Part shown: positions 42,642 to 61,011 of the stretch, in pieces
Position numbering within the stretch: the stretch's first letter is position 1
How the letters are laid out: the number at the start of each line of letters is the position of its first letter
Virus record (IMG/VR): IMGVR_UViG_3300042484_002423
Origin: a virus
Taxonomy: Duplodnaviria; Heunggongvirae; Uroviricota; Caudoviricetes
Direction: 5' to 3' (one strand)
DNA: 64,000 bases
Notes under the pieces: generated by a model
Told to the model about the DNA's origin: nothing
The model's input: the letters and a program-made list of their open reading frames with translations, nothing else
Database searches by the model: none
Translations under genes and position numbers: made by a program

Positions 42642-43849
42642 ACTTGCCCCACGATAAATTTTGTGTGTTACCCTGGGTCAGCCTAGAAGCCAGTCCAATT
42701 GGCACAGTGCGTCCTTGTTGCCTGGCCGACGATGAACTGACTGACAACACAGGACAAAAATTCTCGTTGCTCACAGCAAACTTTGCAGATATACAAAACT
42801 CCAATGCCATGCGTGATCTGCGTGAGCAGTTTTTACAAGGCAAAAAGCCGCAGACCTGTCGCAAATGCTGGAATGAAGAACGTGCTGGTCGTACATCAAA
42901 ACGCATGCACACCCTGGACAGACTCAAGCACATAGTAGGTGAACAAGCCTGGACTGTGGACGCCAAGCCACTAATGTTCCTGGATCTCAAGCTGGGCAAC
43001 ATCTGCAACCTCAAATGCCGCATATGTGGTTCATGGAGTTCAAGTCAATTTGCCTCAGAAGAAATTGCTTTCTTGCCACGTGAAGAACAAAAAAAGTCAC
43101 ATGCATATACTATGCTACGGGCCGGTGCCTGGCCCAAGGAAAATGAACAATTCTGGCAAGAAATTGACCGTCATTTAAATGACATACGCTATATTGAATT
43201 CACTGGCGGCGAACCATTCATGATTGAACAGCACTTTGACATGCTGCAGGGCATGGTGGACCGCGGTATTGCGTCACAAGTAGAAATACACTACAACACA
43301 AATGGTACCCATTATCCTGAAAAGGCCAAGGCCATTTGGAAGCACTTTAAAACTGTGGAAATTGCATTCAGTATAGACGATGTGGGCGAGCGTTTTGAAT
43401 ATCAAAGATCAAACGCTGTATGGGCTGAAGTATGCAAAAACCTGGAGCGTTTTAGAGATCTTAAAGAAATACACAGCAACATTCGCTTGCAGATCTGCAC
43501 CACAGTGAATGTGTTTAATGTGCACTACCTGGGCGAAGTGGCCGAGTGGCTGGAGCACAACTGCAATAGCTTTGACTTTGTGTACTGGAACATCATGCAC
43601 GATGCCTGGTACTTCTCTATAGCCACCTTGCCCGACACTGTTAAGGCTCAGATCAAACAGTACCTACGGGGCATCAACACCATTTATCGCAGCGAAATTG
43701 ATCACATCATTGACTTCATGATGCGCGGTGCTTCAACAGATGGCTTTATGCTACGCATGAAGATTAAAGATCTAGATCAAAAGCGCAATCAGGACTTTGC
43801 GCAAGTGGCACCTGAAATGGCTCGTGCAATAGGATATCAACGTGGCTGA
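42638..43849 (+). CDS. Radical SAM enzyme, paralog 4 of 5 (CNLKCRIC, GGEPFM).
   Basis: CX3CX2C, GGEPF and the N-terminal CVLPW...PCC...CRKCW motif are present. ATGA overlap. Confidence 0.7.
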   Translation: MNLPHDKFCVLPWVSLEASPIGTVRPCCLADDELTDNTGQKFSLLTANFADIQNSNAMRDLREQFLQGKKPQTCRKCWNEERAGRTSKRMHTLDRLKHIVGEQAWTVDAKPLMFLDLKLGNICNLKCRICGSWSSSQFASEEIAFLPREEQKKSHAYTMLRAGAWPKENEQFWQEIDRHLNDIRYIEFTGGEPFMIEQHFDMLQGMVDRGIASQVEIHYNTNGTHYPEKAKAIWKHFKTVEIAFSIDDVGERFEYQRSNAVWAEVCKNLERFRDLKEIHSNIRLQICTTVNVFNVHYLGEVAEWLEHNCNSFDFVYWNIMHDAWYFSIATLPDTVKAQIKQYLRGINTIYRSEIDHIIDFMMRGASTDGFMLRMKIKDLDQKRNQDFAQVAPEMARAIGYQRG

Positions 43850-44855
43850 TGTTGTTTTTATGTGGACCTTGGACTCTGTTCCCCGGCACAAACTGCGCAT
43901 GATCTTGCCCGACAATTACCCCATTGAACTGTTTGATCCCAATAGAATATATCCCAACAGCACAGTGTTCTACTATGACATGTATGGCGACTTTCATGAC
44001 CAGATTCCTGACCAGCTTGGTCGTGGACATCGAATTGTATTTGATGCCAAAAATGAACACTATTTACACAGTCATTTGCACTGGGTATTATATAAATTCT
44101 TGCAGCATCCCGGTCAAGGCTGTTTTATCATTTCGGGACATGAGCCCGACCCTTTACCTGGTGTTGAAATCATTGCTACTCCTTACTGGTATTGGATCCT
44201 GGACCAATCCAATTTCAAAGTAACAGGGCTGGCGCAGCAGGTGCGTGATTTTGACATCACACACCGTTTTTTCATGACCATTAGCCTGCCCAGACCCGAG
44301 CGTGATTTTTTGTATGACGAACTGGGTCCAGAACTACGTGCACAAAGCATACACAGTTATCGACACCGTGACATACACTTGCCAGATGATCGTACAGATC
44401 TTGTACTTTGGCAACGCTATGTGAATCCCACGTGGATCAACAGCACTGCATTCAGTCTAGTGGTAGAAACATATATTGATACCATGGCACTGACAGGCCT
44501 CAGTCTCACTAGACACAACAATTGGTTCCTGTGCGAAAAGAGCTACAAGCCCTGTGCAGCACAACATCCATTCATAATGGCCTCTACTCAGGGCAATCTT
44601 GCGTACCTGCGCAGCCAGGGTTTTGAAACATTTCCTGAGCTGTTTGATGAAAGCTATGACAATATCCCAGACTGGCAAGCACGGGTACGCTGCATAGTGC
44701 AACAGGTGCGTGAGTTTGATATTCGCGCAGTCGATCAGCCCAGTGTACGAGAAAAGACTCGCCACAATCATGCTCTTTTCTTTGACCAAGCGGTCACACG
44801 CACACATGCTGAGTCTAGCATACAGCAGCCATTAATGAGATTTGTCAATGCATAA
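43842..44855 (+). CDS. GT10-like glycosyltransferase, paralog 2 of 4. GTG start at 43842. An alternative ATG is at 43860.
   Basis: Motifs LVVETYID...FLCEKSYKPCAAQHPFIMASTQGNLAYLRSQGFETFPELFDESYD. Confidence 0.45.
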   Translation: MADVVFMWTLDSVPRHKLRMILPDNYPIELFDPNRIYPNSTVFYYDMYGDFHDQIPDQLGRGHRIVFDAKNEHYLHSHLHWVLYKFLQHPGQGCFIISGHEPDPLPGVEIIATPYWYWILDQSNFKVTGLAQQVRDFDITHRFFMTISLPRPERDFLYDELGPELRAQSIHSYRHRDIHLPDDRTDLVLWQRYVNPTWINSTAFSLVVETYIDTMALTGLSLTRHNNWFLCEKSYKPCAAQHPFIMASTQGNLAYLRSQGFETFPELFDESYDNIPDWQARVRCIVQQVREFDIRAVDQPSVREKTRHNHALFFDQAVTRTHAESSIQQPLMRFVNA

Positions 44856-46140
44856 GCCCGCCACCATGTGTCTGGCTCCGTGGACACACACGTATCTTTC
44901 GCCGCAGACTGAGCGACGATTGTGCTGTGCTTCTAGAGAACCTGCACAGAACTTTGAACAGTACATTGACACCTCAGCAGGTACTGGTCGGTATATACCT
45001 GTTACCCTGGAACAACACTGGAATTCAGAACACATGCAGAGTGTGCGTCGCAGAATGATGGCAGGAGAAACACTGCCCGAATGTGAAGTCTGCAATGATC
45101 AACTGTTAAATACTTCAGTATATAGAACCTATTTTGATCATTTGTTTGCACACAAACTAGAGGAAATATATGCAAGTACAGATGCTGAGGGTGCCACAAG
45201 CATGACTCCTGTGTCGTGGGATTACCGCTTTAGTAACCTTTGCAACTTCAAATGTAGAACCTGTGGCGACATGCTATCCTCGGCGTGGGAGTCTGAACAA
45301 AAGACTCACAACATGGTTGATCTGGCAAATAGCAAAAACAATTGGATGGTGCCCGGTATTCGACAACAAATTAGTCAATTTCAAGACACGCAAATTGAAG
45401 CCGAATTTGCTAGTGCTGTAGAACAGCACAGAGTAGAAGAAATATACTGGGTAGGTGGCGAACCACTCATGTATGAACAGCACTGGCGTTATATGCAACG
45501 CATTGTGGAATTAGGAGATGGAAACAAGTTATATGCAAGATACAATACTAATCTTAGTAGGATTAATTATCGCAACTGCAATCTATTTAGGGATTTGCTG
45601 GTACATGTTCGTGACTGGCAAATTTGCGCCAGCATCGACGGAACAGGAACAATTGGCGAGTATATACGCACTGGCCTGGATTATCCCACCTTTTTAAACA
45701 ACTTTGAAGCTGGACTTGAAATACAGCAAAATCGTCGCCAAATGCGCTTGGACTTTACCTTGACCCTACCTGGAATGTTTGAAGTTGACAACATACAACG
45801 TCTTGCACAGCAGTACGGGGTGGAGTTGTTAAGCAAGGTGATATTCAGCTTTGATCCCGGTATTGTAATGAGCCCGCTTGTGTTGCCCAGACATTTGTTG
45901 GAGCCTTGGCTAGACGAACTAATTGATAGCTGTACAGCAGCTAGCATGCGAGAAGTACTAACACAATTAAAGACACGCCCCACATTTCAAGAACAATGGC
46001 CAGATACCTATCAGCAGGCCATTGCAAATGGTCGTGCTCGTGTGTTAAAATTGGAAAGCATACGCACACAGCCAACAACAATGGCGGAAATACTTGCAGC
46101 TAGACCTGACGTAAAGAAATGGTGGGATTCAATTGCTTGA
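44848..46140 (+). CDS. Radical SAM enzyme, paralog 5 of 5 (CNFKCRTC, GGEPLM). Track start TTG 44842.
   Basis: CX3CX2C, GGEPL and the N-terminal CLAPW...CC...CEVC motif are present. Confidence 0.7.
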   Translation: MHKPATMCLAPWTHTYLSPQTERRLCCASREPAQNFEQYIDTSAGTGRYIPVTLEQHWNSEHMQSVRRRMMAGETLPECEVCNDQLLNTSVYRTYFDHLFAHKLEEIYASTDAEGATSMTPVSWDYRFSNLCNFKCRTCGDMLSSAWESEQKTHNMVDLANSKNNWMVPGIRQQISQFQDTQIEAEFASAVEQHRVEEIYWVGGEPLMYEQHWRYMQRIVELGDGNKLYARYNTNLSRINYRNCNLFRDLLVHVRDWQICASIDGTGTIGEYIRTGLDYPTFLNNFEAGLEIQQNRRQMRLDFTLTLPGMFEVDNIQRLAQQYGVELLSKVIFSFDPGIVMSPLVLPRHLLEPWLDELIDSCTAASMREVLTQLKTRPTFQEQWPDTYQQAIANGRARVLKLESIRTQPTTMAEILAARPDVKKWWDSIA

Positions 46141-47170
46141 ACATATAGAAATAGACTTACGCGGAACAGACAACAGCGTTTTAACTGTGCATATTGATGT
46201 TGCAGATAACAGTCTCAGCCGTAAATGGCTGGCGGCATTAAATGATATCCTGCAGCGAGATCTGCATTTGGAAAAGAACTACTGTTGGCTGGGCTGGCCC
46301 GACGGTGATAGAAATCTTGAATACCTGTGTGTGCAGATAAATCGCAGCATACATGCCATCAACGCAGCTGATATTGGTTATAGAATTGCTGATTTTTATT
46401 CACCTGCAAACACTGTGCAAAGTGACTTGGATGTCGGTCATGAGCACATGAATCAGTTACACAGATACTTTGAAGACCTGCAAGGTCACGCCGGGGCAAT
46501 TAGCCCGTACTACGCCACCGCAACTGCTGAAACTCGCTGGCACATTAGACAGCTGAATCTCTTGTGCCACGAAGTTGAAAGCCTTGTGCTCAGTATGCGT
46601 AAAAAGATACAGGCGCCAGAGTGGCGTAGGCCCAGTCAGCTGATGTGTTGGCTAAATGCCCCGCGTTTTGAACTAGACGCTAAGGATTTTGAACTGTTTG
46701 GTATTGAAACCATAAATCGCAATCTGGGTGGTGTTTATGTGGGTGTAAATAAAGCAGTGGGCAAACATCACTGGGAGGTGTTCAATGATGAAGGGCGTGA
46801 TTCAAGAGTGGCAGAACTTACAACAAGTGCTCTACGTGCGCAGACTCAAGCAGCTGGTGACTTTGATATTGAGTGGGCAAACAATCCAGGTGCGTATCAC
46901 TGGCAAATCACAAAACTGGCAGAATTCCGTACCTGGCTTGAGTGCAACGGATTTGATCCAGATGACAAGACACTCACAATTGGCCATCCGCAGGTCGGGC
47001 AAGTTGATCTACAAAGGTCGTTTGGCACCACAGATTATGATCAAATATGGCAGCAGCTATCCGCTAAGTTGAATGTGTATAAAATACGCACAAGTACTGC
47101 TGAAGCTACATATGAGTATCGCTGGAGCGACTCGGACTACGCTGCACAGCAAATAAAGGAATTGAAATGA
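46133..47170 (+). CDS. Hypothetical protein (345 aa). The start is uncertain because the track uses TTG.
   Basis: Long coherent ORF coupled to rSAM5. No recognisable motifs. Confidence 0.5.
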   Translation: MLEHIEIDLRGTDNSVLTVHIDVADNSLSRKWLAALNDILQRDLHLEKNYCWLGWPDGDRNLEYLCVQINRSIHAINAADIGYRIADFYSPANTVQSDLDVGHEHMNQLHRYFEDLQGHAGAISPYYATATAETRWHIRQLNLLCHEVESLVLSMRKKIQAPEWRRPSQLMCWLNAPRFELDAKDFELFGIETINRNLGGVYVGVNKAVGKHHWEVFNDEGRDSRVAELTTSALRAQTQAAGDFDIEWANNPGAYHWQITKLAEFRTWLECNGFDPDDKTLTIGHPQVGQVDLQRSFGTTDYDQIWQQLSAKLNVYKIRTSTAEATYEYRWSDSDYAAQQIKELK

Positions 47171-47242: not shown

Positions 47243-47344
47243 ATGAACTGGATTCGACAACTATGGGCACGAATTACCCTGGAAATTCGTTATCGCAAGA
47301 AACTCAAAGAGCTTCGTAAAAGAGACCCATTCATTTACAAATGA
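47243..47344 (+). CDS. Possible small basic ORF (33 aa, MNWIRQLWARITLEIRYRKKLKELRKRDPFIYK) coupled (ATGA) to the carbamoyltransferase gene.
   Basis: The ATG at 47243 is in frame through to a TGA that overlaps the ATG at 47341. Below the ORF-track size cut-off. Speculative. Confidence 0.2.
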   Translation: MNWIRQLWARITLEIRYRKKLKELRKRDPFIYK

Positions 47345-48828
47345 AATACATCTTGGGAGTCAGTGCAGGATATCATGACGCTGCGGTAACACTGTTGGAT
47401 CGGCACGGCGACATTGAATTTGCATCTAGTAGTGAACGCTACAGCAAGATCAAAAATGATCCTGATATTTGTAGTGCCTTGATACATGAAATATACGGAT
47501 ATGATATTGATCATATTGCATACTACGAACGTCCCTGGGCCAAGCAGTTAAGACAGCTTTACTCGGGACAAGGTATAGAGTGGTCAAGACTCACTGTGGC
47601 ACAAAATTTGCGTGAGCAATTTGGCAACAGCTACAGCTTGTGCGGCACCAAATTGAGTTCGTTTAATCATCACTTGAGTCATGCAGCCGCTGGTTTTCAA
47701 ACCAGCAGTTTCGATCGTGCCACAGTGGTGGTAATTGATGCCATAGGCGAATGGGACACAGTGACAATATGGGCAGCACAATATGATTCAACAGGTGCTG
47801 CAACTTATCAAAAGCTTTGGACTCAGCGTTACCCGCACAGTATCGGACTCTTTTATAGTGCAGTTACTGGCCGTGTGGGTCTGCGGCCACTAGACGAAGA
47901 ATACATTCTCATGGGTATGGCAGCTTATGGCGAGCGTGGCTTCAGTGAACTCATGCGCAAAGACTTGGTTGCCGATGAGTGGAAGCTAGAATTCCAACAA
48001 AATCTACACACGGGCCTGGACCAAAAGTATTTGAGTCACATCAGCGACATGGATCTAGCAGCCGGAGCACAGGATCTAGTGGAAGATCTCATAATGAATG
48101 TGATGCATCGTGCTAGAGGTTTTGGCTGGAGCAAGAATCTTGTATACATGGGAGGGGTTGCACTGAATTGCAGTGCCAATCGTAGATTAGGTGAACTATT
48201 TGACAACATATGGATTATGCCTTGCCCTGGTGATGCTGGCTCTAGCTTGGGTGCCGCTGCCTTGGCTCATGGTGGTAGGATCAATTGGCGTGATGCTTTT
48301 CTGGGCCATGATATTGGCGGTGCTTACCCAGTACATGCCATTTTGGATGAGCTTGTGTCTCATCGTATCGTTGGTGTCGCTAGCGGCCGGGCTGAGTTTG
48401 GTCCGCGAGCGCTAGGCAATAGAAGTTTACTAGCGGACCCCAGAGGTCCAGAAATCAAGGACCGTGTAAATGAAATCAAACGCAGACAACAATTTAGACC
48501 CTTTGCGCCAGTTATATTGGAGGAATTGGCTGATACTTACTTTGATATGCCTAGGGGTTTCAGTAACAGTAGGTATATGCAGTCAGTCGCTCGTTGCAGG
48601 GTTCCTGAGCTATTTCCTGCTATTGTGCATCATGATGGTACCAGTCGTGTACAGACAGTACCTAAAGATGGATCCGGTATTCGAGAACTATTAGAGAAAT
48701 GGTACGTGATGACTGGCTGCCCTATGTTGCTTAATACATCATTAAACATACGTGGAGAGCCCATGGTCAATGATAGAGCAGATGCAGATAGATTTGAACG
48801 TGAATACGGTGTAAGAGTTTGCAGTTAA
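47341..48828 (+). CDS. Carbamoyltransferase, NodU/CmcH/TobZ family.
   Basis: The N-terminus MKYILGVSAGYHDAAVTLLDRHGDIEFASSSERYSKIKND matches the carbamoyltransferase N-terminal domain consensus (MKILGIS..HDSAAAL..DG....A..EER..R.K). Length 495 aa. Confidence 0.7.
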   Translation: MKYILGVSAGYHDAAVTLLDRHGDIEFASSSERYSKIKNDPDICSALIHEIYGYDIDHIAYYERPWAKQLRQLYSGQGIEWSRLTVAQNLREQFGNSYSLCGTKLSSFNHHLSHAAAGFQTSSFDRATVVVIDAIGEWDTVTIWAAQYDSTGAATYQKLWTQRYPHSIGLFYSAVTGRVGLRPLDEEYILMGMAAYGERGFSELMRKDLVADEWKLEFQQNLHTGLDQKYLSHISDMDLAAGAQDLVEDLIMNVMHRARGFGWSKNLVYMGGVALNCSANRRLGELFDNIWIMPCPGDAGSSLGAAALAHGGRINWRDAFLGHDIGGAYPVHAILDELVSHRIVGVASGRAEFGPRALGNRSLLADPRGPEIKDRVNEIKRRQQFRPFAPVILEELADTYFDMPRGFSNSRYMQSVARCRVPELFPAIVHHDGTSRVQTVPKDGSGIRELLEKWYVMTGCPMLLNTSLNIRGEPMVNDRADADRFEREYGVRVCS

Positions 48829-49862
48829 AGATAAGTCTCTAAACCACCGCGACGACGGATGTCTTGTGTACAGCAACTGATACCACCATCCCAGAAGTAA
48901 CTGTGACGCAGCTCAGAGATAATGGGGTTGATCCGATGCTGCCGACAGTAATCAAACACCTGCTTGTTGTAGGCGCTGAAGATTACATTCTCTTCGTCAA
49001 GCACAAGACAGTTTACATCAAACACTGTCTCGGCTACAAATCCTGTCCATTTGGTTAGATACGTGTTCACAAAGTCTGTGAACTCAGGTGTGGGAGTTTG
49101 TCCCTGTACATACCATGCTCCAGGGCTTTGTTCATACTTGAACTTGCCCACTTCCATTGCAGCCCAAATACTACTGTCCCAGATCTTGCACACATCCCAG
49201 CCCGGGAAGTCTTTGGCTAGATCCAAGTTAACATCGTGCTTGCTGCTGAGTAGCACACCAGGCTTTAGGATAGCAAACACAGCATCTCCGTGACCGTCTG
49301 TGATGGCTTCGTGTACCCGGTACTCAGGACCCAGTACATTGTCCACAATCCAACGTGTTTGATCCGGACGCAAGAAGTCTGAGTTGTCAAAGAACACATC
49401 GCGACCCACACGCACAATACAGCTGGCTGACGCACCGTTTAGAATACAGTTCTTGTCCCAGCCAGTGGGCCCATGTGGGTTGATCACAACACCACCCTGT
49501 GACTCATAGTCTTGGCATACTGAATCTAGTTCTTGCATGGCCAACACACGCAGCAGCTTGTTGCCCAGGGTGATTTGCCAGTCTCTTGGGGTTAGTGGGG
49601 GTAAAGGGGCACCTTGACCACTGATTTGTCCTTGCTGGAATTGGTGGATGTCGGGGAGATCGGGCCTACGCACGCGAGCACCATACTGTTCAATGGTACG
49701 TTGCAGGTTTGCAAGATCTTCTTCAGTTTCATGTAATATTTGTTGTAGTTGTGCACGAACCTGAGCATTCTCAATAAAGTCAAAGTACTTGGGAGCATAG
49801 GCTCTACCCACGATGACTTCTTCCAATGGCTGCCAGGATGTGTATGAATTAATAACTGTCAT
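48825..49862 (-). CDS. Amidinotransferase, glycine/inosamine amidinotransferase (AGAT/StrB1)-like. The track start at 49880 is GTG. The ATG at 49862 overlaps the upstream stop.
   Basis: The N-terminus SWQPLEEVIVGRAYAP resembles AGAT (EWDPLEEVIVGRAENA). The C-terminus GGISCCTQDIRRRGGLETYL resembles the AGAT catalytic-Cys motif GGFHCWTCDVRRRG. Confidence 0.65.
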   Translation of the reverse strand: MTVINSYTSWQPLEEVIVGRAYAPKYFDFIENAQVRAQLQQILHETEEDLANLQRTIEQYGARVRRPDLPDIHQFQQGQISGQGAPLPPLTPRDWQITLGNKLLRVLAMQELDSVCQDYESQGGVVINPHGPTGWDKNCILNGASASCIVRVGRDVFFDNSDFLRPDQTRWIVDNVLGPEYRVHEAITDGHGDAVFAILKPGVLLSSKHDVNLDLAKDFPGWDVCKIWDSSIWAAMEVGKFKYEQSPGAWYVQGQTPTPEFTDFVNTYLTKWTGFVAETVFDVNCLVLDEENVIFSAYNKQVFDYCRQHRINPIISELRHSYFWDGGISCCTQDIRRRGGLETYL

Positions 49863-51039
49863 TGATTTCTCGCACAACACTATTTAAACGTTGTGTCTTG
49901 ACCTTACAAAATAACTGCTGATTGTGCACAATGTCATCGTGTGCCTGTGCAAACAGTTCAAGCAAGCGCGGTTTGGCCGCCGCCACAGCGCCACGCAAGG
50001 CCAGCCAACGTTGAGTATTGTCAACGATAGTATCGTAACTGTTGTCCAGCACTGAATCAAATGTGCGATAGCCCAATTTGCGCAGCAGTTCAAGACTGCC
50101 AGCAGGGCCCACTATAAAGAACATTTGTCCGTGTTTGATAGGCTTGAATGTTTTTTCTGTAAGAAATGTACCACCACTTTGATCAGCATCAAAGTGTGTT
50201 TCCAGTACAATGTTGCAGTAGCTGTTGACATGGTACTTGGGTTCCAGCACACTGTGATTGTTGCGTTGATGGTTGTCAAGCTCATCACTCACATAGGGAG
50301 TGTATGCTAGAAACTTGGCAGTTTCTGTGCGCAACTTACGCACAGCATCCACTTGAATTGGGCTGTCGTTTGGATCCATGTCAGCTGGATCCACAGTTTC
50401 ACAATAGCTCCAGTAGCTGTTGGTCAAGATGTTTTGGCGATGTAGGTCAGCCATGCACATGGCCCGCCAGGGTTTGTGCAATCGCACCAGTGCAGTAAAG
50501 TCACGTTCTCGGGGCAGTTGATGCACGGGCAATGCAGGATTGTTATGATTGCGCTGCCAGTACCATAGTTCAAAATCTGTGAAATAAACAAATCCTGGAA
50601 TATCGCGGGCAGCAGTGTTTGCACTCACAAATACATAACTGTTCAAGGGCAATTGATGCTGTATCAGCAGCGCATCCAGTCGTTGTTTGATACGCAAAGG
50701 ATTGTCACCTTCGTGATAGTAAAACAACACTTTCAATGCAGACTGACGCAGTCGATCAGTCACTGGCCCGGGCAGTAGTGCAAAATAATCTATGTCAAAG
50801 TCAAAGAATCCCAGGCCAATAGGATAGAATGTCTTGGCTGGCAATTGATCTGCAATGCTGAATATATTGATCTTGACAGCATGATGATCGCAGTATTCTT
50901 GCAAACGAACTGGCACAGTATGAGGAAAGTGAGACCCAAACTCGCGCCATGCTGGGGTATAAGGCCTGGCCCCCCACTGTGCCAGTGCAGGATAGATGCG
51001 TCCTTTGACCACACGGTCAGCTACCAGATTCAATTGCAT
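49849..51039 (-). CDS. GT10-like glycosyltransferase, paralog 3 of 4.
   Basis: Motif IVLETHFDADQSGGTFLTEKTFKPIKHGQMFFIVGPAGSLELLRKLGYRTFDSVLDNSYD. ATG start. Confidence 0.45.
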   Translation of the reverse strand: MQLNLVADRVVKGRIYPALAQWGARPYTPAWREFGSHFPHTVPVRLQEYCDHHAVKINIFSIADQLPAKTFYPIGLGFFDFDIDYFALLPGPVTDRLRQSALKVLFYYHEGDNPLRIKQRLDALLIQHQLPLNSYVFVSANTAARDIPGFVYFTDFELWYWQRNHNNPALPVHQLPRERDFTALVRLHKPWRAMCMADLHRQNILTNSYWSYCETVDPADMDPNDSPIQVDAVRKLRTETAKFLAYTPYVSDELDNHQRNNHSVLEPKYHVNSYCNIVLETHFDADQSGGTFLTEKTFKPIKHGQMFFIVGPAGSLELLRKLGYRTFDSVLDNSYDTIVDNTQRWLALRGAVAAAKPRLLELFAQAHDDIVHNQQLFCKVKTQRLNSVVREINDSY

Positions 51040-52177
51040 TCAACATCTCCTGCAGCTCTTGCCACAACACAGTTTCAAATCCGCCCCCATAAAAATGATT
51101 CCAGTTGTGTTCTACCACTTCCTGGGCCATGTCGAACAGGTCCTGCTTGCCCTCTGGGCCCAGTTCATCTAGGCTACGCAGCAGGCTGGCAATGCGCTCA
51201 ATGCGATCTTGGTCATCAGCAAGGTCATAGCTCTCGTCCCAAATACCTTCAAATGTACGGAACCCATAACTGCGCAAATACTCTAAACTGCCCTGAGTTC
51301 CCACAATAATAAACGGCATGCCCATGGCAATGGGTTTGAATGTTTTTTCAGTCAAATGATGTCTGCGTCCTGTGGCCACAGTTTCAGTCACAAGATACAG
51401 CAGGCTTTCAGCACATTGATCAAACAGGCTAAGCCAGCATGAGTGCATGGGATGATCAGTCTCTCCCTCAAAGTTCATGGGCAGTGTTTGTGCTGCAAAC
51501 ACCGACTCTATGTCAGGATACTTTGTGGCCAATGGCTTGACAGCATCCAGTATGCTGATATTCTCTGCAGGACATATTGCTGGACAGCTGATGTGATTGT
51601 CCAGCATGTTGTTACGGAATATATGGTACAGCATTTCCAAACGATGTCGTCGTTCTCCTGCCACAATACGATTGGGTGCAATAAACGTTCGGGTTATGGT
51701 GCGCTGGTCTATTGGCTTGATCAAGAAAGTTCGATCATATCCGCGATACCAATCCAGTGCAGCCCAGCCATGAAAGAAATAGTACAGTGGTATCCAATCA
51801 AATTGCTTGCACACAGCTTCAACGTTCTCACTATTTTGCTCGCTTGTGACAATGTATCCTGGCGATCTTTGACGCAACGATTTAGGTATGTGTCCAATAA
51901 TCTTTGTTCTAGTCTCGTCTGCATAGTGTCCGTTGTGTATATCTTCGTTGAGCTTTTTTACACGATCAAATGTTGGAATGTGTATGTTCAAATGAATTGG
52001 CTCTTGGTCAAAAAAGAATATATAATTGTGTTCACGGGCATCATCTCTGCCGTAATTCATGACACTATCTGGATCACTTCTACCAAAAGGTTCGCAAAAA
52101 AATTCTCTAAATCCGGGGCGATGCTGCTTCATCCAATGCCAAAATGTATTACTATAAATTTCGTCGATTCTAATCAT
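51017..52177 (-). CDS. GT10-like glycosyltransferase, paralog 4 of 4.
   Basis: Motif YLVTETVATGRRHHLTEKTFKPIAMGMPFIIVGTQGSLEYLRSYGFRTFEGIWDESYD. Its ATG at 52177-52175 overlaps the divergent ATG at 52176. Confidence 0.45.
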   Translation of the reverse strand: MIRIDEIYSNTFWHWMKQHRPGFREFFCEPFGRSDPDSVMNYGRDDAREHNYIFFFDQEPIHLNIHIPTFDRVKKLNEDIHNGHYADETRTKIIGHIPKSLRQRSPGYIVTSEQNSENVEAVCKQFDWIPLYYFFHGWAALDWYRGYDRTFLIKPIDQRTITRTFIAPNRIVAGERRHRLEMLYHIFRNNMLDNHISCPAICPAENISILDAVKPLATKYPDIESVFAAQTLPMNFEGETDHPMHSCWLSLFDQCAESLLYLVTETVATGRRHHLTEKTFKPIAMGMPFIIVGTQGSLEYLRSYGFRTFEGIWDESYDLADDQDRIERIASLLRSLDELGPEGKQDLFDMAQEVVEHNWNHFYGGGFETVLWQELQEMLNAIESGS

Positions 52178-54389
52178 GTTTGATGTATTCTATTTGAAAA
52201 GTGAAAAAAAGCCTGGCATCTTTGCGCATGAGATGCCAGCAATGTCGTTGCAGGATGCGCAGTCTCAGAGTCGCACAAGATACTTTTGGTGGATCACATA
52301 CTTATGTGATTATAGCAGCTTTGACTTTGATTATCAACCACTGCCATGGCAAAGTGAGTTTACACATGCATGGCCCAGCCATCACCATGAGTACTCGGGC
52401 ACGTATCTTGTGCCCCGGAGTGGTGATATACAGTATCACTTTCACAGCACAGTAGTGCCCAATTGTTATCGCCTGGGAGAGTTTGACACCTTGACCAATC
52501 ATGTGAACTTTGACTACACCTGGGCACCACATCCACATGATCCACCTTATATCTATGTGTTTGGCAACCAGTGGTGGCCAGCAGAGAAAATGCCCACTGT
52601 GGAGTATCATGTGCCTGGCGCGACAGAACGCAAGTACATGACTGAGCCGCAAGCACAGTTGCCTGAACGTCATTGCAATCGCTGGCATACCGTAGTAGAC
52701 TGCAACTGGGATTACTCTTGGGTACCTGATCCTGGCGATCCACCTTATATCTATGTGTTTGGCAACCAGTGGTGGCCAGCAGAGAAAATGCCCACTGTGG
52801 AGTATCACTCACCAGGCGCAACAGAACGCAAGTATGTTTCATGGCCACGTGCTAAACTACTACAGGATCGCACACACTGGCAAGCACCTGACGACATCGA
52901 TACTGACAGCGTAGACTATTCGTGGGTACCCGATCCTGGAGACCCGCCCTACATCTATCAGTTTGCTACCCAGCACCAAAAGACCGGGGGTCCACAATAC
53001 ACAGTGCCTGGAGCTATTGAAGTAAAATATCTTGCTGAACTACGAGTACGCACAGCAGGTAGAGCCACTGCTGTAGTGGAAATTGATCACTTAGACGGCA
53101 CAGCAGGTGCTATACCTAACACTACACGCAAGGTGCGCTACTTTGACAACTATCGCGATACGCTTGTACGCATTGCCAAGAGCATGACAGATCAACACGA
53201 ATACATCTGGGTGTGCAGCAGCATTTGTGATTACACAGACTTTGATTTCTCATGGCACCCAGAAGATTGGCAAGCCACAATGCTACATGTATTTGCCAGC
53301 GACGGGGAGAAGTTTGGCGACACATTCTTCATGCATGTTCCTACATTTGCAGAGTACGGGGACAAGAAAGCACTGTTGGAATGGTATGATGTAAACTTTG
53401 TAGATGTTAGTGTGCGCCGCAAACCCATGCCTATAATTGAACACAGTTACGACAGTCAAGCAGAAGCAGTTCAAGCATTGCCATTTGATGGCCCGCTGGC
53501 GCTGTATACAAACACAAACTATGTGCGAGACAATCTAGCAACAGTTCCGCTATGGCGTACAGAAACCAAAACCATTGTGCCACTTAGTGCAGGTGCAACA
53601 TCAGTGATAGTACCCCGAACCGCAGTGGCTCATATTCGCACACAGTTGTATGATTATGCCTACATAGACAAGACACGTCGTATGTTAAAAGATAAGCCCC
53701 TGGACATTGTGTTCATTAGCAACGGAGAAAAAAATTCTGATCAAAATTACCAGCGTCTAAAGGACAGTACCTACAATCAAAACAATCTGATACATCGCGT
53801 GGACGGGGTAAACGGTCGTGTGGCAGCATATCATGCAGCAGCCCAAAAGTCTACTACATCTTGGTTCTTTGCTGTGTTTGCCAAGCTCAGTGTTGCCAAC
53901 AATTTTGATTGGACCTGGCAACCAGATCGTATGCAGCAGCCCAAGCATTATATTTTTCATGCTGGTAATCCTGTGAATGGCTTGGTATACGGCCACCAAG
54001 CCATGATTGCCTACAACCAAGAATTAGTGTTGGCCAATGCTGGACAAGGTCTTGACTTTACATTGGACAGTGCACACGAAGTTGTGCCCATTCTCAGCGG
54101 CACAGCCAACTATGCTGAAACACCTTGGATGGCCTGGCGCACCGCATTTAGAGAATGTATTAAACTTAAAGCGAGCTTGCCCGATGTAGAAAATGAATAT
54201 CGATTGAGCAAGTGGCTTGATATCAACAGTGATGAAGCAGACCCACAGTGGAGTCGATTTGGTGCAGAAGATGCTATTGAATACTACAATGCTGTTGCGG
54301 GAGATTTTGTTGAGCTTAAGAAAAGCTACGATTGGGCTTGGTTGGCTAGTTATGCGTTTGTCAAACGTTCTTTAACACCTGATCAGTAA
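52176..54389 (+). CDS. Trp-rich repeat protein (737 aa) with ~66-aa tandem repeats (DY.W.P.P.DPPYIYVFGNQWWPAEKMPTVEYH.PGATERKY) and a possible GT2-like C-terminal region. The start may be M20/M23.
   Basis: Repeats are seen at 52480-53010. The C-terminal IVFISNGEKNSDQNY resembles the GT2 N-terminal strand (IIPTYNE). An ATG is at 52176 and alternative in-frame ATGs at 52233 and 52242. Confidence 0.5.
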   Translation: MFDVFYLKSEKKPGIFAHEMPAMSLQDAQSQSRTRYFWWITYLCDYSSFDFDYQPLPWQSEFTHAWPSHHHEYSGTYLVPRSGDIQYHFHSTVVPNCYRLGEFDTLTNHVNFDYTWAPHPHDPPYIYVFGNQWWPAEKMPTVEYHVPGATERKYMTEPQAQLPERHCNRWHTVVDCNWDYSWVPDPGDPPYIYVFGNQWWPAEKMPTVEYHSPGATERKYVSWPRAKLLQDRTHWQAPDDIDTDSVDYSWVPDPGDPPYIYQFATQHQKTGGPQYTVPGAIEVKYLAELRVRTAGRATAVVEIDHLDGTAGAIPNTTRKVRYFDNYRDTLVRIAKSMTDQHEYIWVCSSICDYTDFDFSWHPEDWQATMLHVFASDGEKFGDTFFMHVPTFAEYGDKKALLEWYDVNFVDVSVRRKPMPIIEHSYDSQAEAVQALPFDGPLALYTNTNYVRDNLATVPLWRTETKTIVPLSAGATSVIVPRTAVAHIRTQLYDYAYIDKTRRMLKDKPLDIVFISNGEKNSDQNYQRLKDSTYNQNNLIHRVDGVNGRVAAYHAAAQKSTTSWFFAVFAKLSVANNFDWTWQPDRMQQPKHYIFHAGNPVNGLVYGHQAMIAYNQELVLANAGQGLDFTLDSAHEVVPILSGTANYAETPWMAWRTAFRECIKLKASLPDVENEYRLSKWLDINSDEADPQWSRFGAEDAIEYYNAVAGDFVELKKSYDWAWLASYAFVKRSLTPDQ
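52480..53010 (+). repeat. In-frame ~198-nt tandem repeat, 2 copies plus a degenerate third. A 71-nt core is identical at 52539-52609 and 52737-52807.
   Basis: Exact nucleotide identity of the cores is seen in the sequence. Confidence 0.85.
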
Positions 54390-55473
54390 CGTATTCCACG
54401 TCTAGGTCAGACAGCTCAGGATATATGGGCAAGCTCAGCACCCGCTGGCAGAGTGCAGAAGCAACACTCAGCATGTTGGGTCCAGGGAATTGCCTTAACA
54501 CAGGATCATCGTGCAAGGGTTGAGCATAATGTATTCGTGTGTCAATACTGGCATTCCATAGTTTTTCTTGCAGCCGATTGCGATGATCAACATCAATCAC
54601 AAACTTGTGAAACGCATGGTGGTGTTCGTTGTGTTCGTTGATCAAGCAGCGTATGCCAGTATTCTCAAAACGCTCGCACATGTAGGCAGCAATCCGGCGA
54701 CGACGACCTTGCCACTGATCAATGTACTGTGTTTTGACCATCATGTGTGCACAATCCAGTTCGCTCATGCGACTGTTGCTGCCGCCGCGCTCGGGCTTGT
54801 AGTTGCCTTTGTTGTGATTACCCCAGGCTCGTGCAAAGTCTGCTAGATCCAAGTTGTCTGTGACCACTGCACCGCCGTTGCCATAACAGGCCAAGTTCTT
54901 CATAGGGTCAAAGCTGATGGCACTTCCGTCACCAATTCGTAAACTGTTGTTGCCCAACCAGTGTTGTGCAGCATCTTCGATCACAGTGATATTATTGTGC
55001 AACCAATGTGTCCAGGCTTTTACTGAGTGAGCATGAGAAATAGCAGCACCGTACAACCCAACCAACACTACGGCCTGATAATCCAGGCCCTGGGGAATTT
55101 TATCAGGATCAAGCAAACCGTTGACATCCACATCAACAAAATGTAAGTCCCAGCCAGCTCGCAAAAATGCATTGGCAGTGGCCACAAACGTCAAGCTGGG
55201 AATCAACACTCGTGGGGGTTTGTTGTTTAGTTCCAATCCACGCCAGTACTCGGCAATAATTTCCAGAGCTTGAGTGCCCGAGTGACAAGTTACTGCATTT
55301 TTGCCCCCGTTCCTGACAGCCAGCCAGTTTTCAAATTTCTGAGTCCAAGGGCCGTTCATGAGCTGACCAGATCGCAGCACCTGATCAGTTGAGTCCAGAA
55401 TCTCCTCACGGAGTTGGTTATACTGTCTTGGGAGACCAGTAAACGGAATTCGCCAACCAGGTATAGTATTCAC
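54361..55473 (-). CDS. PLP-dependent sugar aminotransferase, DegT/DnrJ/EryC1/StrS family. GTG start.
   Basis: The N-terminus IPFTGLPRQYNQLREEILDSTDQVLRSGQLMNGPWTQKFENWLA...AVTCHSGTQALE matches the DegT family consensus. Length 370 aa. Confidence 0.7.
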   Translation of the reverse strand: MNTIPGWRIPFTGLPRQYNQLREEILDSTDQVLRSGQLMNGPWTQKFENWLAVRNGGKNAVTCHSGTQALEIIAEYWRGLELNNKPPRVLIPSLTFVATANAFLRAGWDLHFVDVDVNGLLDPDKIPQGLDYQAVVLVGLYGAAISHAHSVKAWTHWLHNNITVIEDAAQHWLGNNSLRIGDGSAISFDPMKNLACYGNGGAVVTDNLDLADFARAWGNHNKGNYKPERGGSNSRMSELDCAHMMVKTQYIDQWQGRRRRIAAYMCERFENTGIRCLINEHNEHHHAFHKFVIDVDHRNRLQEKLWNASIDTRIHYAQPLHDDPVLRQFPGPNMLSVASALCQRVLSLPIYPELSDLDVEYVTDQVLKNV

Positions 55474-56386
55474 GGAATCCTTGTTCTACGTCAACTTTGG
55501 GATCAAAACCAAGAATGGTTCTGGCCCGATCAATATTCAACGCACCGCGACTGGGAAAGTCTGCATCCTTGTCGCGTACTTCAATGGTGCCCTTGCCCAC
55601 AATTTCCACAATCATTTCTGCGGCTTCGAGTAGTGAAACTGAATGTGATTTGGTAATGTTGTAAGTATTGTTTCGCGCCATGATGCGAGTCGCAGCCGCA
55701 ACAATGCCATCTGCAGCGTCATCCACATACGTAAAGTCCAGCGTTTCCGACGCCCCGTTGACTCGTAGTACGCCGCCACGCATGGCCTGGAGCATAAACT
55801 TTGCAACAACCCTATCTTCCACGTCCAACGGTCCATACACAGCTGACGGACGGATGATAACATACTCCATGCCTGTTCTTCTTGCATAATCTTTAACAAG
55901 CCACTCTCCTGCCAGTTTCATGATGCCGTATTGTCCTTGTGGCGAACACGGATCATCTTCCAACACTTGATCTTCAAAGTCTCCGTACACCATGCTTGAA
56001 CTTATGTATACAAATCGCTCAACACCGTGCTTTTTGGCACTCTCAAGAAGATTGGTCAAGCCCTCCATCATGACACGAGCACCGTAAGCAGGGTTAGCAT
56101 TGACAACTTTTTGTCGGGGGAAGCTGGCCATGTGCACAATTACGTTAGGCTTCTCGTTCCCAACAATTGCATTCATACGATCTGCATCTTCGATATAGTC
56201 GTGATAGATTGGACATGGTGCAATCTTCTTCAGCCGTTCGCCTACAAGATAATCAACTTCTGCTCTTGGAATAATACCATATGTGGTTTGATTGTCTACG
56301 ACAACAACTTCTTCGTTGCGTTGTTGCAGACGCTGTACTACGTTGTGACCGATCAGACCCAGGCCACCAGTAACTAAAATTTTCAT
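55418..56386 (-). CDS. NAD-dependent nucleotide-sugar epimerase/dehydratase (extended SDR).
   Basis: MKILVTGGLGLIGHNVV carries a GxxGxxG Rossmann motif. A YGIMK YxxxK catalytic motif is present. Length 322 aa. Confidence 0.7.
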   Translation of the reverse strand: MKILVTGGLGLIGHNVVQRLQQRNEEVVVVDNQTTYGIIPRAEVDYLVGERLKKIAPCPIYHDYIEDADRMNAIVGNEKPNVIVHMASFPRQKVVNANPAYGARVMMEGLTNLLESAKKHGVERFVYISSSMVYGDFEDQVLEDDPCSPQGQYGIMKLAGEWLVKDYARRTGMEYVIIRPSAVYGPLDVEDRVVAKFMLQAMRGGVLRVNGASETLDFTYVDDAADGIVAAATRIMARNNTYNITKSHSVSLLEAAEMIVEIVGKGTIEVRDKDADFPSRGALNIDRARTILGFDPKVDVEQGFREYYTWLANSVYWSPKTV

Positions 56387-60738: not shown

Positions 60739-60834
60739 TCAGATAACTCCAGTAGAAAAAAGATAAAAACACACAGCAAAACCCAGGGCAAAGTACAAGG
60801 GCCTGAGCCAACGATCATTGATCATAAGATTCCT

Positions 60835-61011
60835 TTAAAAAACAACCACAAACCCAGCCAGTAGCACAACTGCCGCCAGTGAACACATTGTAGCATAGAC
60901 AACTAATTTTGTCAACTGCCATTGCTCTTTGCCGCTCATTTGGCGCACAGCCATGATACCAAAGCCAACTGCGGCACTCAGTATCAACCACATTGTAAAC
61001 ATTTTAACCAT
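60835..61011 (-). CDS. Small two-TM membrane protein (58 aa). The start is trimmed from the GTG at 61191 to the ATG at 61011.
   Basis: The GTG start would overlap the VWA gene by 164 nt. An in-frame ATG at 61011 begins the hydrophobic part MVKMFTMWLILSAAVGFGIMAV... Confidence 0.4.
   Translation of the reverse strand: MVKMFTMWLILSAAVGFGIMAVRQMSGKEQWQLTKLVVYATMCSLAAVVLLAGFVVVF

Follow-up and report, generated by a model that had tools for sequence, protein, structure and literature searches.

A carbamoyltransferase and an amidinotransferase-like enzyme at the centre of a conserved, putative glycan-tailoring island in a jumbo T4-like myovirus

The window analysed here, 64,000 nucleotides of IMG/VR record IMGVR_UViG_3300042484_002423, comes from an abundant jumbo T4-like myovirus related to Rak2 and Atu_ph07, and its genes for a late sigma factor, a baseplate wedge and a baseplate hub bear out the phage origin given in the initial annotation. 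After the baseplate and giant-fibre module lies an island of ~22 kb (~34.4-56.4 kb), at whose centre a carbamoyltransferase gene (CT, 47341-48828, + strand) and an amidinotransferase-like gene (AmT, 48825-49862, - strand) converge. The island also encodes six predicted glycosyltransferases (four of GT-B and two of GT-A-like type), five radical SAM paralogs of the N-terminal-twitch type, an aminotransferase of the DegT family and a short-chain dehydrogenase/reductase (SDR). No hydrophobic segment was found in any island protein; no membrane protein is encoded, and all products are soluble.

The 495-aa CT product belongs to the TobZ/NovN/GdmN/NodU family, as proposed earlier from its N-terminus. 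Both of its Pfam domains (PF02543, Carbam_trans_N, E=2.3e-34; PF16861, Carbam_trans_C, E=1.3e-47) exceed the gathering score, the sequence matches the solved structures of NovN (4.9e-55), GdmN (2e-47) and TobZ (3e-37), and it falls into PHROG 1601, "Nol-like carbamoyltransferase" (5e-89). The Kae1-like N-domain followed by a YrdC-like C-domain is the architecture common to TobZ, NovN, GdmN, NodU and CmcH, and the comparison with TobZ that had been suggested, extended to NovN and GdmN, aligned all hallmark motifs: HHLSH (110-114), D133, GDAGSS (D298), GPRALGNRS, FRPFAP and NTS. In 66 orthologous loci, these residues are invariant and internal stops are absent. The phage protein is shorter than TobZ (576 aa), scores far below the NodU equivalog cut-off of NCBIfam (135.6 versus 1000 bits), has its nearest isolate-phage homologs at only 45-49% identity and, unlike the characterised members, follows a 33-aa ORF to which it is translationally coupled. 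Judged by its sequence, it is a complete O-carbamoyltransferase of the TobZ/NovN/NodU type.

For AmT, the mechanical ORF call spans 48825-49880 with a GTG start, but the ATG at 49862 is favoured, in line with the length of 345-347 aa found in more than 100 close homologs. The terminal motifs on which the initial annotation had relied are present, FWDGGISCCTQDIRRRGGLETYL at the C-terminus and SWQPLEEVIVGRA in the N-terminal region, and its family assignment held: the sequence matches AGAT (1.7e-15), StrB1, HsvA and SxtG of the pentein/guanidino-group-modifying superfamily over its full length, and a family profile of 40 sequences matches the solved structures at 7.6e-35 to 1.8e-30, while no Pfam model was matched even at E=10. 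The expected Cys-His-Asp triad is only partly retained. The nucleophilic Cys (C330, AGAT C407), the catalytic His (H191, H303) and both guanidinium-binding Asp (D94, D170; D193, D305) are common to AGAT, StrB1, HsvA and SxtG and show little or no variation across 40 diverse homologs and 78 viral loci, whereas the AGAT triad Asp D254 (motif FDAADF) is replaced by Ser in the window protein (GASASC) and is Ser or variable across the family. Instead, residue 278, at a position close to AGAT Ser355, is always Glu or Asp. Pseudogenes are absent among the 78 AmT loci and the 66 CT loci, and the possibility raised earlier that the two ORFs are degenerate or truncated copies does not hold. The ORF is a full-length relative of arginine amidinotransferases, although the lack of the canonical triad Asp and of a Pfam match makes a hydrolase, or the use of a different donor, possible. 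The clade is restricted almost wholly to viral contigs, of which at least 578 carry it; a search of 185,579 species genomes returned 15 loci, every one on a MAG contig.

The stop codons of CT and AmT share the TTAA at 48825-48828, giving the 4-nt tail-to-tail overlap described before, and no terminator-like site was found at this junction. The two genes are convergent in all 66 related loci, with a gap of -4 nt in 13 of them and -5 nt in one; in the remaining loci, they are separated by 25 nt to 4 kb of extra genes, the inserts including FkbM-type and class I methyltransferases and additional radical SAM genes. With an overlap in only 14 of the 66 loci, the tight junction is not conserved, and CT and AmT do not form a fixed pair: they adjoin where two convergent operons meet, at a hotspot of gene insertion.

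Immediately upstream of CT, we read from the sequence an unannotated 33-codon ORF, MNWIRQLWARITLEIRYRKKLKELRKRDPFIYK (47243-47344, + strand), whose stop overlaps the CT start codon (ATGA). It was found in 65 of the 80 viral loci searched, at a position where related contigs have a called 33-aa gene, and the ATGA overlap is kept in 60 of the 66 sequences compared (the 65 loci and the window). Synonymous codons are free to vary, yet residues 13-33 hardly change, and the peptide is the most conserved element of the island, far more so than the enzymes. In Ralstonia phage RsoM2USA and Marine virus AG-345-D19, too, its C-terminal motif adjoins genes of the CT and radical SAM types; the combination of peptide, CT and N-twitch radical SAM thereby recurs in three phage lineages with CTs only 45-49% identical, the peptide stop overlapping or abutting the next start codon in each. 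The peptide was not found in AmT plus radical SAM loci that lack CT (L013, L020-L022), nor in cyanophage or pelagiphage CT loci. Upstream of both genes, ORF 46133-47170 (+ strand) encodes a conserved protein with no Pfam, PHROG or NCBIfam match, present in every related locus of sufficient length.

The radical SAM paralogs all lie on the + strand: paralog 1, of the N-terminal twitch type (37178-38563; Radical_SAM 7e-09, and paralogy with the other four); paralog 2 (39646-40980; Pfam match), which is 49% identical to RsoM2USA_202, a neighbour of CT in the Ralstonia phage; paralog 3, with a SPASM/twitch domain (40977-42641; SPASM 3.6e-10, paralogy); paralog 4 (42638-43849; Radical_SAM 1.4e-11 plus SPASM); and paralog 5 (44842-46140; CNFKCRTC motif), which reaches 284.7 bits against a cut-off of 170 for NF033640, "twitch domain-containing radical SAM protein". 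Four GT-B-type predicted glycosyltransferases are paralogous by BLASTP and alignment, with the common motif LTEKTFKPI...G.L.YLRS.GF.TF..DESYD. Two are on the + strand (38538-39659 and 43842-44855) and two on the - strand (49849-51039, the next gene after AmT in its operon, and 51017-52177, whose structure was modelled). The 737-aa product of 52176-54389 (+ strand) has N-terminal repeats (W.PDPGDPPYIYVFGNQWW...) and a GT-A-like C-terminal domain (aa 470-737), of which a second copy is encoded at 36261-37184 (+ strand; BLASTP match to residues 509-700). On the - strand, ORF 54361-55473 is a DegT/DnrJ/EryC1/StrS PLP-dependent sugar aminotransferase, as first annotated (Pfam 3.4e-64; PLP lysine in SFDPMK), scoring below every NCBIfam equivalog cut-off. 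Its neighbour (55418-56386, - strand) is an extended SDR predicted to act on nucleotide sugars (Pfam Epimerase 8.6e-47; GGLGLIG and YGIMK motifs), previously called a dehydratase. However, it has ISSSMVYGD where RmlB-type dehydratases have Thr-Asp-Glu, lacks the dehydratase Asp-Glu pair and reaches only 127.8 bits against the TIGR01181 cut-off of 365.1; it looks like an epimerase or oxidoreductase, a dehydratase role not being demonstrable. At the upstream edge, two + strand ORFs without family matches (34385-35188 and 35097-35939) are of uncertain membership; the +/-10-kb flanks of related loci, in which neither was seen, are too short to reach them.

Synteny of the island extends to ~70 related viral contigs (from genomes of ~340-364 kb), in which AmT, CT and ORF 46133 are accompanied by 3-6 radical SAM, 1-5 GT-B, 1-3 GT-A, DegT and SDR genes, the glycosyltransferase repertoire differing between close relatives. 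In more distant phages (L020-L022), members of the AmT clade accompany radical SAM arrays but no recognisable glycosyltransferases, and in some others they stand in unrelated contexts; thus, a sugar substrate is not a necessary inference.

The initial annotation knew of no such pathway in a tailed phage, yet similar clusters have been annotated before, and at that level the island is not unprecedented. Carbamoyltransferases are common in cyanomyoviruses (PMC3037559) and occur in 139 phage records, a radical SAM and "glycine amidinotransferase" cluster was noted in 2010 in Campylobacter phages CP220/CPt10 (PMC2853527), and amidinotransferases were described in 2025 in cyanophage S-SCSM2R (PMC12801897). 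As in the window, the CP220 cluster (five radical SAMs, one AmT and two GT-A genes) directly follows the baseplate genes of a T4-like myovirus; however, its AmT is only 22% identical to ours, its radical SAMs are of a different subtype, and it has a PAP2 phosphatase but no CT, DegT/SDR or small ORF. The cyanomyovirus, pelagiphage and S-SCSM2R islands likewise place CT and/or AmT amid glycosyltransferases, sugar-nucleotide enzymes, radical SAM and DegT-like genes (e.g., the S-CAM1 CT, found beside a tail fibre gene together with heptose genes and an epimerase, or the HTVC008M CT with a glycosyltransferase, a methyltransferase and UDP-glucose dehydrogenase), but 2OG-Fe(II) oxygenases abound in them, and neither the radical SAM array nor the peptide is present. 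Identities are 27-34% for CT and 29% for the S-SCSM2R AmT.

Our preferred reading, held with moderate confidence, is that CT and AmT, the 3'-terminal genes of two convergent operons, encode functional enzymes, and that both operons belong to one conserved and wholly cytoplasmic island for glycan assembly and tailoring. By homology, the YrdC-like domain of CT would convert carbamoyl phosphate and ATP to carbamoyl-AMP, from which a hydroxyl or amine on the acceptor would be carbamoylated at the metal site of the Kae1-like domain. In AmT, Cys330 would attack the guanidinium carbon of L-arginine gripped by Asp94 and Asp193, ornithine would be released, and an acceptor amine would resolve the S-amidino intermediate to a guanidino group; His191 would serve as general base, its absent partner Asp perhaps replaced by the family-specific acidic residue 278. 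The acceptor amine would most plausibly come from the DegT aminotransferase acting on a keto-sugar supplied by the SDR or by one of the five twitch-type radical SAMs (with a precedent in BtrN-like dehydrogenation), and the sugars would be assembled or attached by the four GT-B and two GT-A-like proteins. Given that the SDR lacks proof of dehydratase activity, the keto-sugar source is undefined, which counts against this glycan-tailoring reading, and the 4-amino-deoxyhexose product proposed in the initial annotation has no demonstrated route.

The enzyme families, intact motifs, invariant catalytic residues, conserved and syntenic island composition, glycosyltransferase folds and solubility are established directly; that CT and AmT act on sugars, in which order the steps run and what the final acceptor is, we infer. 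The reading also draws on the junction inserts of relatives, which are further tailoring enzymes, on the sugar-nucleotide genes around CT in other phages, on the S-SCSM2R AmT lying among glycosyltransferases beside KdsA/KdsB, and on the position of the CP220 cluster after baseplate genes. That a sugar-type substrate is decorated with amino, guanidino and carbamoyl groups, as the initial annotation had broadly put forward, fits an island with six predicted glycosyltransferases. As acceptor, a phage-made macromolecule (a virion fibre or baseplate protein) ranks, by a narrow margin, before host envelope glycan and DNA, considering that the island follows the baseplate/giant-fibre module and that the virion proteome of S-SCSM2R includes AmT ORF266 (PMC12801897).

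Soluble viral glycosyltransferases and sugar-nucleotide tailoring sets that work without host membrane machinery also build the virion glycans of chloroviruses and mimiviruses; to our knowledge, carbamoyl, amidino, aminotransferase and radical SAM partners are absent there. Phage DNA glycosylation clusters are organised alike, some with several glycosyltransferases and epimerases (10.1101/2023.12.21.572611; PMC13326640), and the sugars could be placed on a hydroxylated or hydroxymethylated pyrimidine and tailored by CT, AmT, DegT and the radical SAMs into a bulky, cationic glycan on the DNA, shielding it from host nucleases. The solubility of every island enzyme, a glycosyltransferase set that varies as expected in an arms race, and a ThyX gene 600 nt from the island and again near AmT and CT in the divergent locus L027 speak for this. 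We nevertheless consider it unlikely, as the island-adjacent ThyX has the canonical RHRSFSFQEFSQR motif, no base-hydroxymethylating enzyme was found (no ThyA-like hydroxymethylase/hydroxylase, 5mYOX/TET, dCTPase or dNMP kinase in the window and ~5.5 kb past its right end), and carbamoyl, amidino, aminotransferase and radical SAM partners go unmentioned in the two cited studies. Remodelling of the host envelope, the usual assumption for cyanophage "LPS" islands, would make the island an auxiliary metabolic module altering LPS or capsule sugars, e.g., to block superinfection. CT is a recurrent auxiliary gene among LPS-type sugar genes of cyanomyoviruses and pelagiphages (PMC3037559), ORF266 of S-SCSM2R adjoins KdsA/KdsB, ORF309 lies among GT25 and GT2 genes, and the CP220 phosphatase is of a lipid type. 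This too seems improbable, given that the island encodes no initiating phosphoglycosyltransferase, flippase, polymerase or ligase, that no sequence relation between its glycosyltransferases and characterised LPS glycosyltransferases could be detected, and that strictly conserved genes spanning ~22 kb would be costly for a lytic jumbo phage to carry.

The far stronger purifying selection on the CT-coupled 33-aa peptide means that the true substrate could be a peptide. It may be a precursor or carrier modified by the radical SAMs, CT, the glycosyltransferases and possibly AmT, or a metabolite-sensing ribosome-arrest leader gating CT translation, its conserved C-terminal ~21 residues approximating the ribosome exit tunnel length and its stop overlapping the CT start codon. 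HypF, which carbamoylates the C-terminus of HypE, is a precedent for a carbamoyltransferase acting on a peptide, as mycofactocin and glycocins are for peptides with radical SAM enzymes and glycosyltransferases. Besides the recurrence in three lineages, the peptide S-glycosyltransferase SunS is among the GT-A fold matches, and radical SAM ORF 44842 weakly matches the peptide maturases AmcB and DynA, albeit far below cut-offs. Family scans of the island detected no RiPP recognition element, leader peptidase or exporter, DegT and SDR indicate nucleotide-sugar chemistry, and the loci without the peptide add to our doubts about this explanation. We regard a free aminoglycoside-like or guanidino metabolite as very improbable. 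The streptomycin, bluensomycin, butirosin and tobramycin pathways do draw on these enzyme classes (twitch radical SAM, DegT/StrS aminotransferase, amidinotransferase, carbamoyltransferase and glycosyltransferases), and small molecules are what HsvA, SxtG and StrB1, the nearest AmT relatives of solved structure, produce; the S-SCSM2R authors read their genes as "antibiotic synthesis genes" (PMC12801897). The streptomycin/tobramycin analogy drawn earlier stands for the enzyme classes only: Pfam and NCBIfam scans of all island ORFs revealed no cyclitol-forming or other aminoglycoside-specific enzyme, nor a resistance gene or exporter, the AmT clade is about equidistant from all characterised amidinotransferases, and the benefit of a diffusible antibiotic to a lytic phage is hard to see.

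As far as our searches show, three features of the island are new: an AmT clade almost exclusive to viral contigs, its co-travelling with radical SAM arrays, and a highly conserved 33-codon ORF that overlaps the CT start and is also found in two distant phages.

The 495-aa ORF at 47341-48828 (+) encodes an O-carbamoyltransferase (CT) of the NodU/CmcH/TobZ family, as the initial annotation had proposed. Both of its Pfam domains scored over the gathering threshold (PF02543, N-terminal, 119.8 bits versus a cut-off of 24; PF16861, C-terminal, 161.9 versus 27), and the protein matched PHROG 1601 ("Nol-like carbamoyltransferase") at 5e-89. In alignments with the best solved relatives, NovN (4.9e-55), GdmN (2e-47), and TobZ (3e-37), the hallmark motifs HHLSH, VIDAIGE, GDAGSS, GPRALGNRS, FRPFAP, and NTS are all kept, and the metal-binding H-x-x-x-H with two Asp of the Kae1-like domain, as well as the motifs of the YrdC-like domain, are present. 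Across 66 orthologous viral loci, H110, H114, D133, D298, R356, R361, R386, T466, and S467 are invariant and no internal stop occurs. Since the protein reaches only 135.6 bits against the NodU equivalog NF041651 (cut-off 1000), it is a member of the family and not a NodU ortholog. The family is found in 139 phage records, mainly cyanomyoviruses and pelagiphages, and the nearest isolate homologs belong to the Ralstonia jumbo phage RsoM2USA (45% identity) and Marine virus AG-345-D19 (49%). Carbamoyltransferases have been listed among cyanophage genes since 2010 (PMC3037559).

The convergent gene encodes an amidinotransferase-like enzyme (AmT). Its mechanical ORF spans 48825-49880 (-); since more than 100 close homologs are 345-347 aa long, the ATG at 49862, chosen in the initial annotation, is the likely start. 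No family was reported by Pfam, PF02274 (amidinotransferase/ADI) included, even at E=10. The kinship to arginine amidinotransferases rests instead on significant full-length homology to characterized members: phmmer searches against the solved structures of AGAT, StrB1, HsvA, and SxtG gave E-values of 1.7e-15 to 1.4e-10, and a family profile built from 40 diverse homologs gave 7.6e-35 to 1.8e-30, with both halves of the protein covered. A Cys/His/Asp triad had been set as the point to verify, and the alignment upheld two of the three residues. The nucleophile C407 of AGAT corresponds to C330 and the catalytic H303 to H191, both present in 78/78 viral loci. The guanidinium-binding residues D305 and D170 correspond to D193 (78/78) and to D94 of a PRD motif (77/78), and R93 is likewise found in all 78. 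The third triad residue, D254 (FDAADF), is replaced by Ser145 (GASASC), a position which is S, N, D, V, A, or G over the 78 loci and also varies among the 40 diverse homologs. Loss of D254 is what most sets the protein apart from canonical members. Counting along the chain, which extrapolates outside the aligned block, would place E278, which lies six residues before the invariant Asn284 and is Glu in 72 of the 78 loci and Asp in the other six, at the position of AGAT Ser355. We think that the missing Asp would not abolish function, because the remaining four residues are invariant, every locus has intact genes, and E278 is always acidic. The possibility that either gene is a pseudogene, or a degenerate or truncated copy, was rejected, as no stops were found and the catalytic residues are invariant in all of the 66-78 loci compared.

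Within 1.84 billion representative proteins, the AmT clade is small, comprising 681 clusters at 50% identity, and relatives were found on at least 578 IMG/VR contigs and, with more than 3,400 homologs, on metagenomic contigs of up to 364 kb. In 185,579 species genomes, only 15 loci were recovered, all of them on contigs of metagenome-assembled genomes (MAGs) and several evidently phage, including one of the window's own phage lineage that was assigned to a Haliscomenobacter MAG; a bacterial origin of the clade was discarded on these grounds. The clade is thus confined almost entirely to viral contigs. The contig of the window's lineage (NZ_JBBAKG010000003.1, 148 kb) carries an AmT 88% identical to that of the window, and two more AmT-bearing contigs lie in the same Haliscomenobacter sp. 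MAG, which reflects either mis-binning or a clue to the host. Other AmT matches in lake MAGs suggest a freshwater origin.

The tail-to-tail arrangement described for the two genes was reproduced, with stop codons sharing TTAA at 48825-48828 and no terminator-like site at the junction. Around 70 IMG/VR loci carry an AmT 61-90% identical to that of the window and, where the flank is long enough, all of them hold the AmT, the CT, a conserved protein (46133-47170, +, in the window), three to six radical SAM genes, a DegT aminotransferase, and a short-chain dehydrogenase/reductase (SDR), with copy numbers varying for GT-B (1-5) and GT-A (1-3) glycosyltransferases. CT and AmT are convergent in 66/66 loci, and their ends overlap in 14 of these (by 4 nt in 13 and 5 nt in one). 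The remaining loci have 25 nt to 4 kb of additional sequence between the two genes (L031-L099), and the inserts include methyltransferases of the FkbM type and of class I, further radical SAM genes, and a D-Ala-D-Ala carboxypeptidase. Given these inserts, the junction is a hotspot for accessory tailoring genes and not a fixed gene pair.

The remainder of the island (window ~34.4-56.4 kb) consists of soluble proteins: no membrane protein was found, nor any hydrophobic segment in its proteins (highest 19-residue Kyte-Doolittle mean, 1.49). Five paralogous radical SAM proteins start at 37178, 39646, 40977, 42638, and 44842. The last one matches NF033640 ("twitch domain-containing radical SAM protein") with 284.7 bits (cut-off 170) and has CNFKCRTC as its CxxxCxxC cluster motif, and the other four are tied to it by BLASTP. 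The DegT/DnrJ/EryC1/StrS aminotransferase (54361-55473, -; PF01041, 217.8 bits; PLP lysine motif SFDPMKNL) stays below all substrate-specific NCBIfam equivalog cut-offs. Public gene calls give it 332 aa; the 370-aa form, with a 56-nt overlap with the 3' end of the SDR gene, is probably correct, since the Pfam domain starts at residue 20 and relatives align from residue 3 of the longer ORF.

RmlB-type 4,6-dehydratases carry a catalytic Thr/Ser-Asp-Glu set together with Y-x-x-x-K. The extended SDR at 55418-56386 (-) has the GxxGxxG and YxxxK (YGIMK) motifs, with ISSSMVYGD in place of Thr-Asp-Glu and 127.8 bits against TIGR01181 (cut-off 365.1), and its assignment as a dehydratase was not borne out. 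Likewise, neither Pfam nor NCBIfam detected a cyclitol-forming enzyme among the island ORFs (2-deoxy-scyllo-inosose synthase, myo-inositol-phosphate synthase or dehydrogenase) or any gene for resistance or export, and the aminocyclitol pathway of the streptomycin/tobramycin type was therefore dropped. What stands of the tailoring interpretation are the CT, AmT, and DegT enzyme classes; the dehydratase, the aminocyclitol pathway, and the AmT triad Asp do not.

Nine further ORFs (34385, 35097, 36261, 38538, 43842, 46133, 49849, 51017, and 52176) gave nothing in Pfam (to E=10), PHROGs, or NCBIfam, and no PDB sequence was found in profile searches with the GT-B family, the GT-A-like domain, or the radical SAM protein at 44842. 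The 737-aa ORF 52176-54389 (+) contains about three tandem repeats DY.W.PDPGDPPYIYVFGNQWWPAEKMPTVEYH.PGATERKY in its N-terminal half (52176-53580, +), and the repeat number varies between relatives, as the orthologs in L003-L006 are 853-1520 aa long. Its start codon overlaps divergently by 2 nt (window 52175-52177) with that of ORF 51017-52177 (-), leaving no room for an intergenic promoter, and its 3' end overlaps that of DegT by 29 nt (window 54361-54389).

The apparent 170-nt gap 5' of the CT contains an unannotated 33-codon ORF, 47243-47344 (+), encoding MNWIRQLWARITLEIRYRKKLKELRKRDPFIYK, whose TGA stop overlaps the CT start codon (ATGA). It was found in 65 related loci; the N-terminal 12 residues vary, and residues 13-33 are nearly invariant while their codons vary freely (six codons for Leu21, six for Arg25, and four for Pro29). 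Because near-invariant residues are combined with free synonymous variation, selection acts on the peptide itself, and much more strongly than on the AmT or the CT, the latter being 58-78% identical. The motif RK.DP[FY]IY also adjoins CT and radical SAM genes in RsoM2USA (...IRKQDPFIYK*), within the unannotated interval that separates two DUF6071 genes, and in AG-345-D19 (...LRKSDPYIYEE*), again with an ATGA overlap onto the CT start; small peptide ORF copies outside the window lie at 17892-18002 (-) of the RsoM2USA locus (L007) and 2134-2220 (-) of L001, with the stop overlapping or abutting the next start. In RsoM2USA (L007, 17036-21044), three DUF6071 paralogs (genes 200, 201, and 203) flank the radical SAM gene, the peptide ORF, and the CT; in its record, the DUF6071 genes are all "hypothetical" and the CT itself is unannotated. 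A DPFIY peptide was absent beside the cyanophage, pelagiphage, C48C1, CP220, and S-SCSM2R loci, and no RiPP-type recognition element or protease was detected with Pfam and NCBIfam near the peptide and radical SAM genes. The peptide may serve as substrate or carrier, as a leader that arrests the ribosome, or as a small subunit, and the conserved micro-ORF offers a directly testable handle.

The window is part of a T4-like jumbo myovirus, with a gp55-type late sigma factor (683-1582), a baseplate hub (8752-10269), and a baseplate wedge (12248-15685) that shares ~34% identity with its counterparts in Sinorhizobium phage Phosso, Agrobacterium phage Atu_ph07, and the PBECO4 group. The related contigs are up to 340-364 kb long. 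Megablast of the CT-AmT gene pair against 50,697 phage records gave no match, and the phage has no close cultured relative. Directly 3' of the wedge gene, a TTG-initiated ORF of 4916 aa (15682-30432, +), rich in Thr, Val, Gly, Ser, and Asn and nearly without Cys, His, and Met, presumably encodes a giant fiber or baseplate protein and is a candidate glycosylation target. A recent foreign insertion was rejected, as GC content is uniform (0.44-0.48). A single copy of the T4 late-promoter motif TATAAATA was found in the 64 kb, as expected by chance, and sigma-70 and terminator scans of the window performed no better than chance. To the right, window 59941-62338 (-) and ~5.5 kb past the right end (L029) encode proteins of the Band_7, DUF2201/VWA, and MoxR-like AAA ATPase types and, after these, solute-binding proteins of the DctP and TctC types, which are phage-carried transporter components; a search for DNA-modification partners past the right end returned just these genes.

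Related gene associations extend beyond this lineage. AmT homologs at 25-36% identity on MAG contigs lie beside arrays of the same radical SAM family (five in L020, four in L021, and at least ten in L022), and Radical_SAM is the commonest Pfam family, with 24 matches, among the 143 ORFs neighboring distant homologs on such contigs. The GT-B family is found near distant homologs in L018 and L025, and ThyX together with a CT in L027. A Pfam census of neighbors for IMG/VR loci with AmT at 33-37% identity revealed no common partner. The 21-kb locus L022 (Pseudobdellovibrionaceae MAG contig JAYVPG010000050.1) is an extreme array, with its radical SAM genes, all paralogous and of the N-twitch type, around one AmT homolog and no recognizable glycosyltransferase in it. 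Among known systems, a cluster in Campylobacter phages CP220 and CPt10 combines a "glycine amidinotransferase" with five radical SAM genes (PMC2853527); in CP220 it lies directly 3' of the baseplate genes, and a PAP2 phosphatase and two GT-A genes belong to it as well. Two amidinotransferases are known from cyanophage S-SCSM2R, whose authors speak of "antibiotic synthesis genes" (PMC12801897). One of them, beside KdsA/KdsB, was found in the virion proteome; the island that holds the other also contains glycosyltransferases, 2OG oxygenases, one radical SAM gene, and a DegT-like fragment. Another paper (PMC5332604) mentions T4-like marine viral genomes with 12 radical SAM genes. None of these clusters is characterized. 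Since the enzyme classes are already annotated in tailed phages, cyanophage CTs included, the finding is not categorically new, contrary to the earlier impression. Literature searches returned nothing on DUF6071, N-twitch radical SAM proteins in phages, or carbamoyltransferases in jumbo phages. As far as our searches show, three features have been undescribed so far, namely a near-exclusively viral AmT clade whose catalytic triad is altered, the linkage of this clade to N-twitch radical SAM arrays and new glycosyltransferase families, and an ultra-conserved micro-ORF coupled to a CT.

What is documented here are enzyme families and their motifs, synteny, solubility, and folds; the order in which the steps follow, the acceptor, and a sugar as substrate of the CT and AmT are inferred. 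Either the SDR or a twitch-type radical SAM enzyme, the latter with BtrN as a precedent, would supply a keto-sugar, onto which DegT would place an amine. By homology, the AmT would take an amidino group from arginine through an S-amidino-Cys330 intermediate and pass it to an amine, while the CT would form carbamoyl-AMP and transfer the carbamoyl group to the acceptor. The six predicted glycosyltransferases (GT-B ORFs 38538, 43842, 49849, and 51017; GT-A-like domains in ORF 36261 and the C-terminal part of ORF 52176) may assemble or attach the sugar.

As the acceptor, a virion protein is our tentative suggestion, because the island follows the fiber/baseplate module here and in CP220, an AmT is found in a virion proteome and giant viruses provide a precedent; even so, we hold it doubtful. 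A host envelope glycan, for which cyanophages offer precedents, seems unlikely, given that no membrane components are encoded. Both likelihoods fall inside that of our best explanation, which we regard as evenly balanced, and the remaining ones are those of its rivals. It is rather improbable that the 33-aa peptide is itself the acceptor or product: its near-invariance and its place beside CT and radical SAM genes are compatible with such a role, and the loci without a DPFIY peptide and the lack of a detected RiPP-type element or protease have to be set beside them. A free small molecule, which the DegT, AmT, and CT classes might recall, is very improbable, with no cyclitol-forming enzyme in the island. 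Broader, and somewhat unlikely in our view, is an undescribed, self-contained viral pathway to a multiply radical-SAM-tailored, guanidinylated, and carbamoylated glycan on phage DNA or virion proteins or on the 33-aa peptide, the latter serving as scaffold for a new glycosylated, peptide-derived product or, alternatively, as an arrest leader that senses a metabolite and controls the CT.

The island is strictly conserved save for its glycosyltransferase and methyltransferase content, which is the pattern expected of an arms-race molecule. T4-like phages, jumbo phages, and cyanophages repeatedly carry islands of sugar, radical SAM, and amidinotransferase genes, which have been annotated since 2010 with no known product, and the lineage of the window is abundant in metagenomes. 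The identity of the product would assign functions to the viral AmT clade, the N-terminal-twitch radical SAM family, and the new GT-B family, would settle whether the label "antibiotic synthesis genes" is correct for such phage genes, and might bring to light glycans on virions or DNA that bear guanidino or carbamoyl groups.
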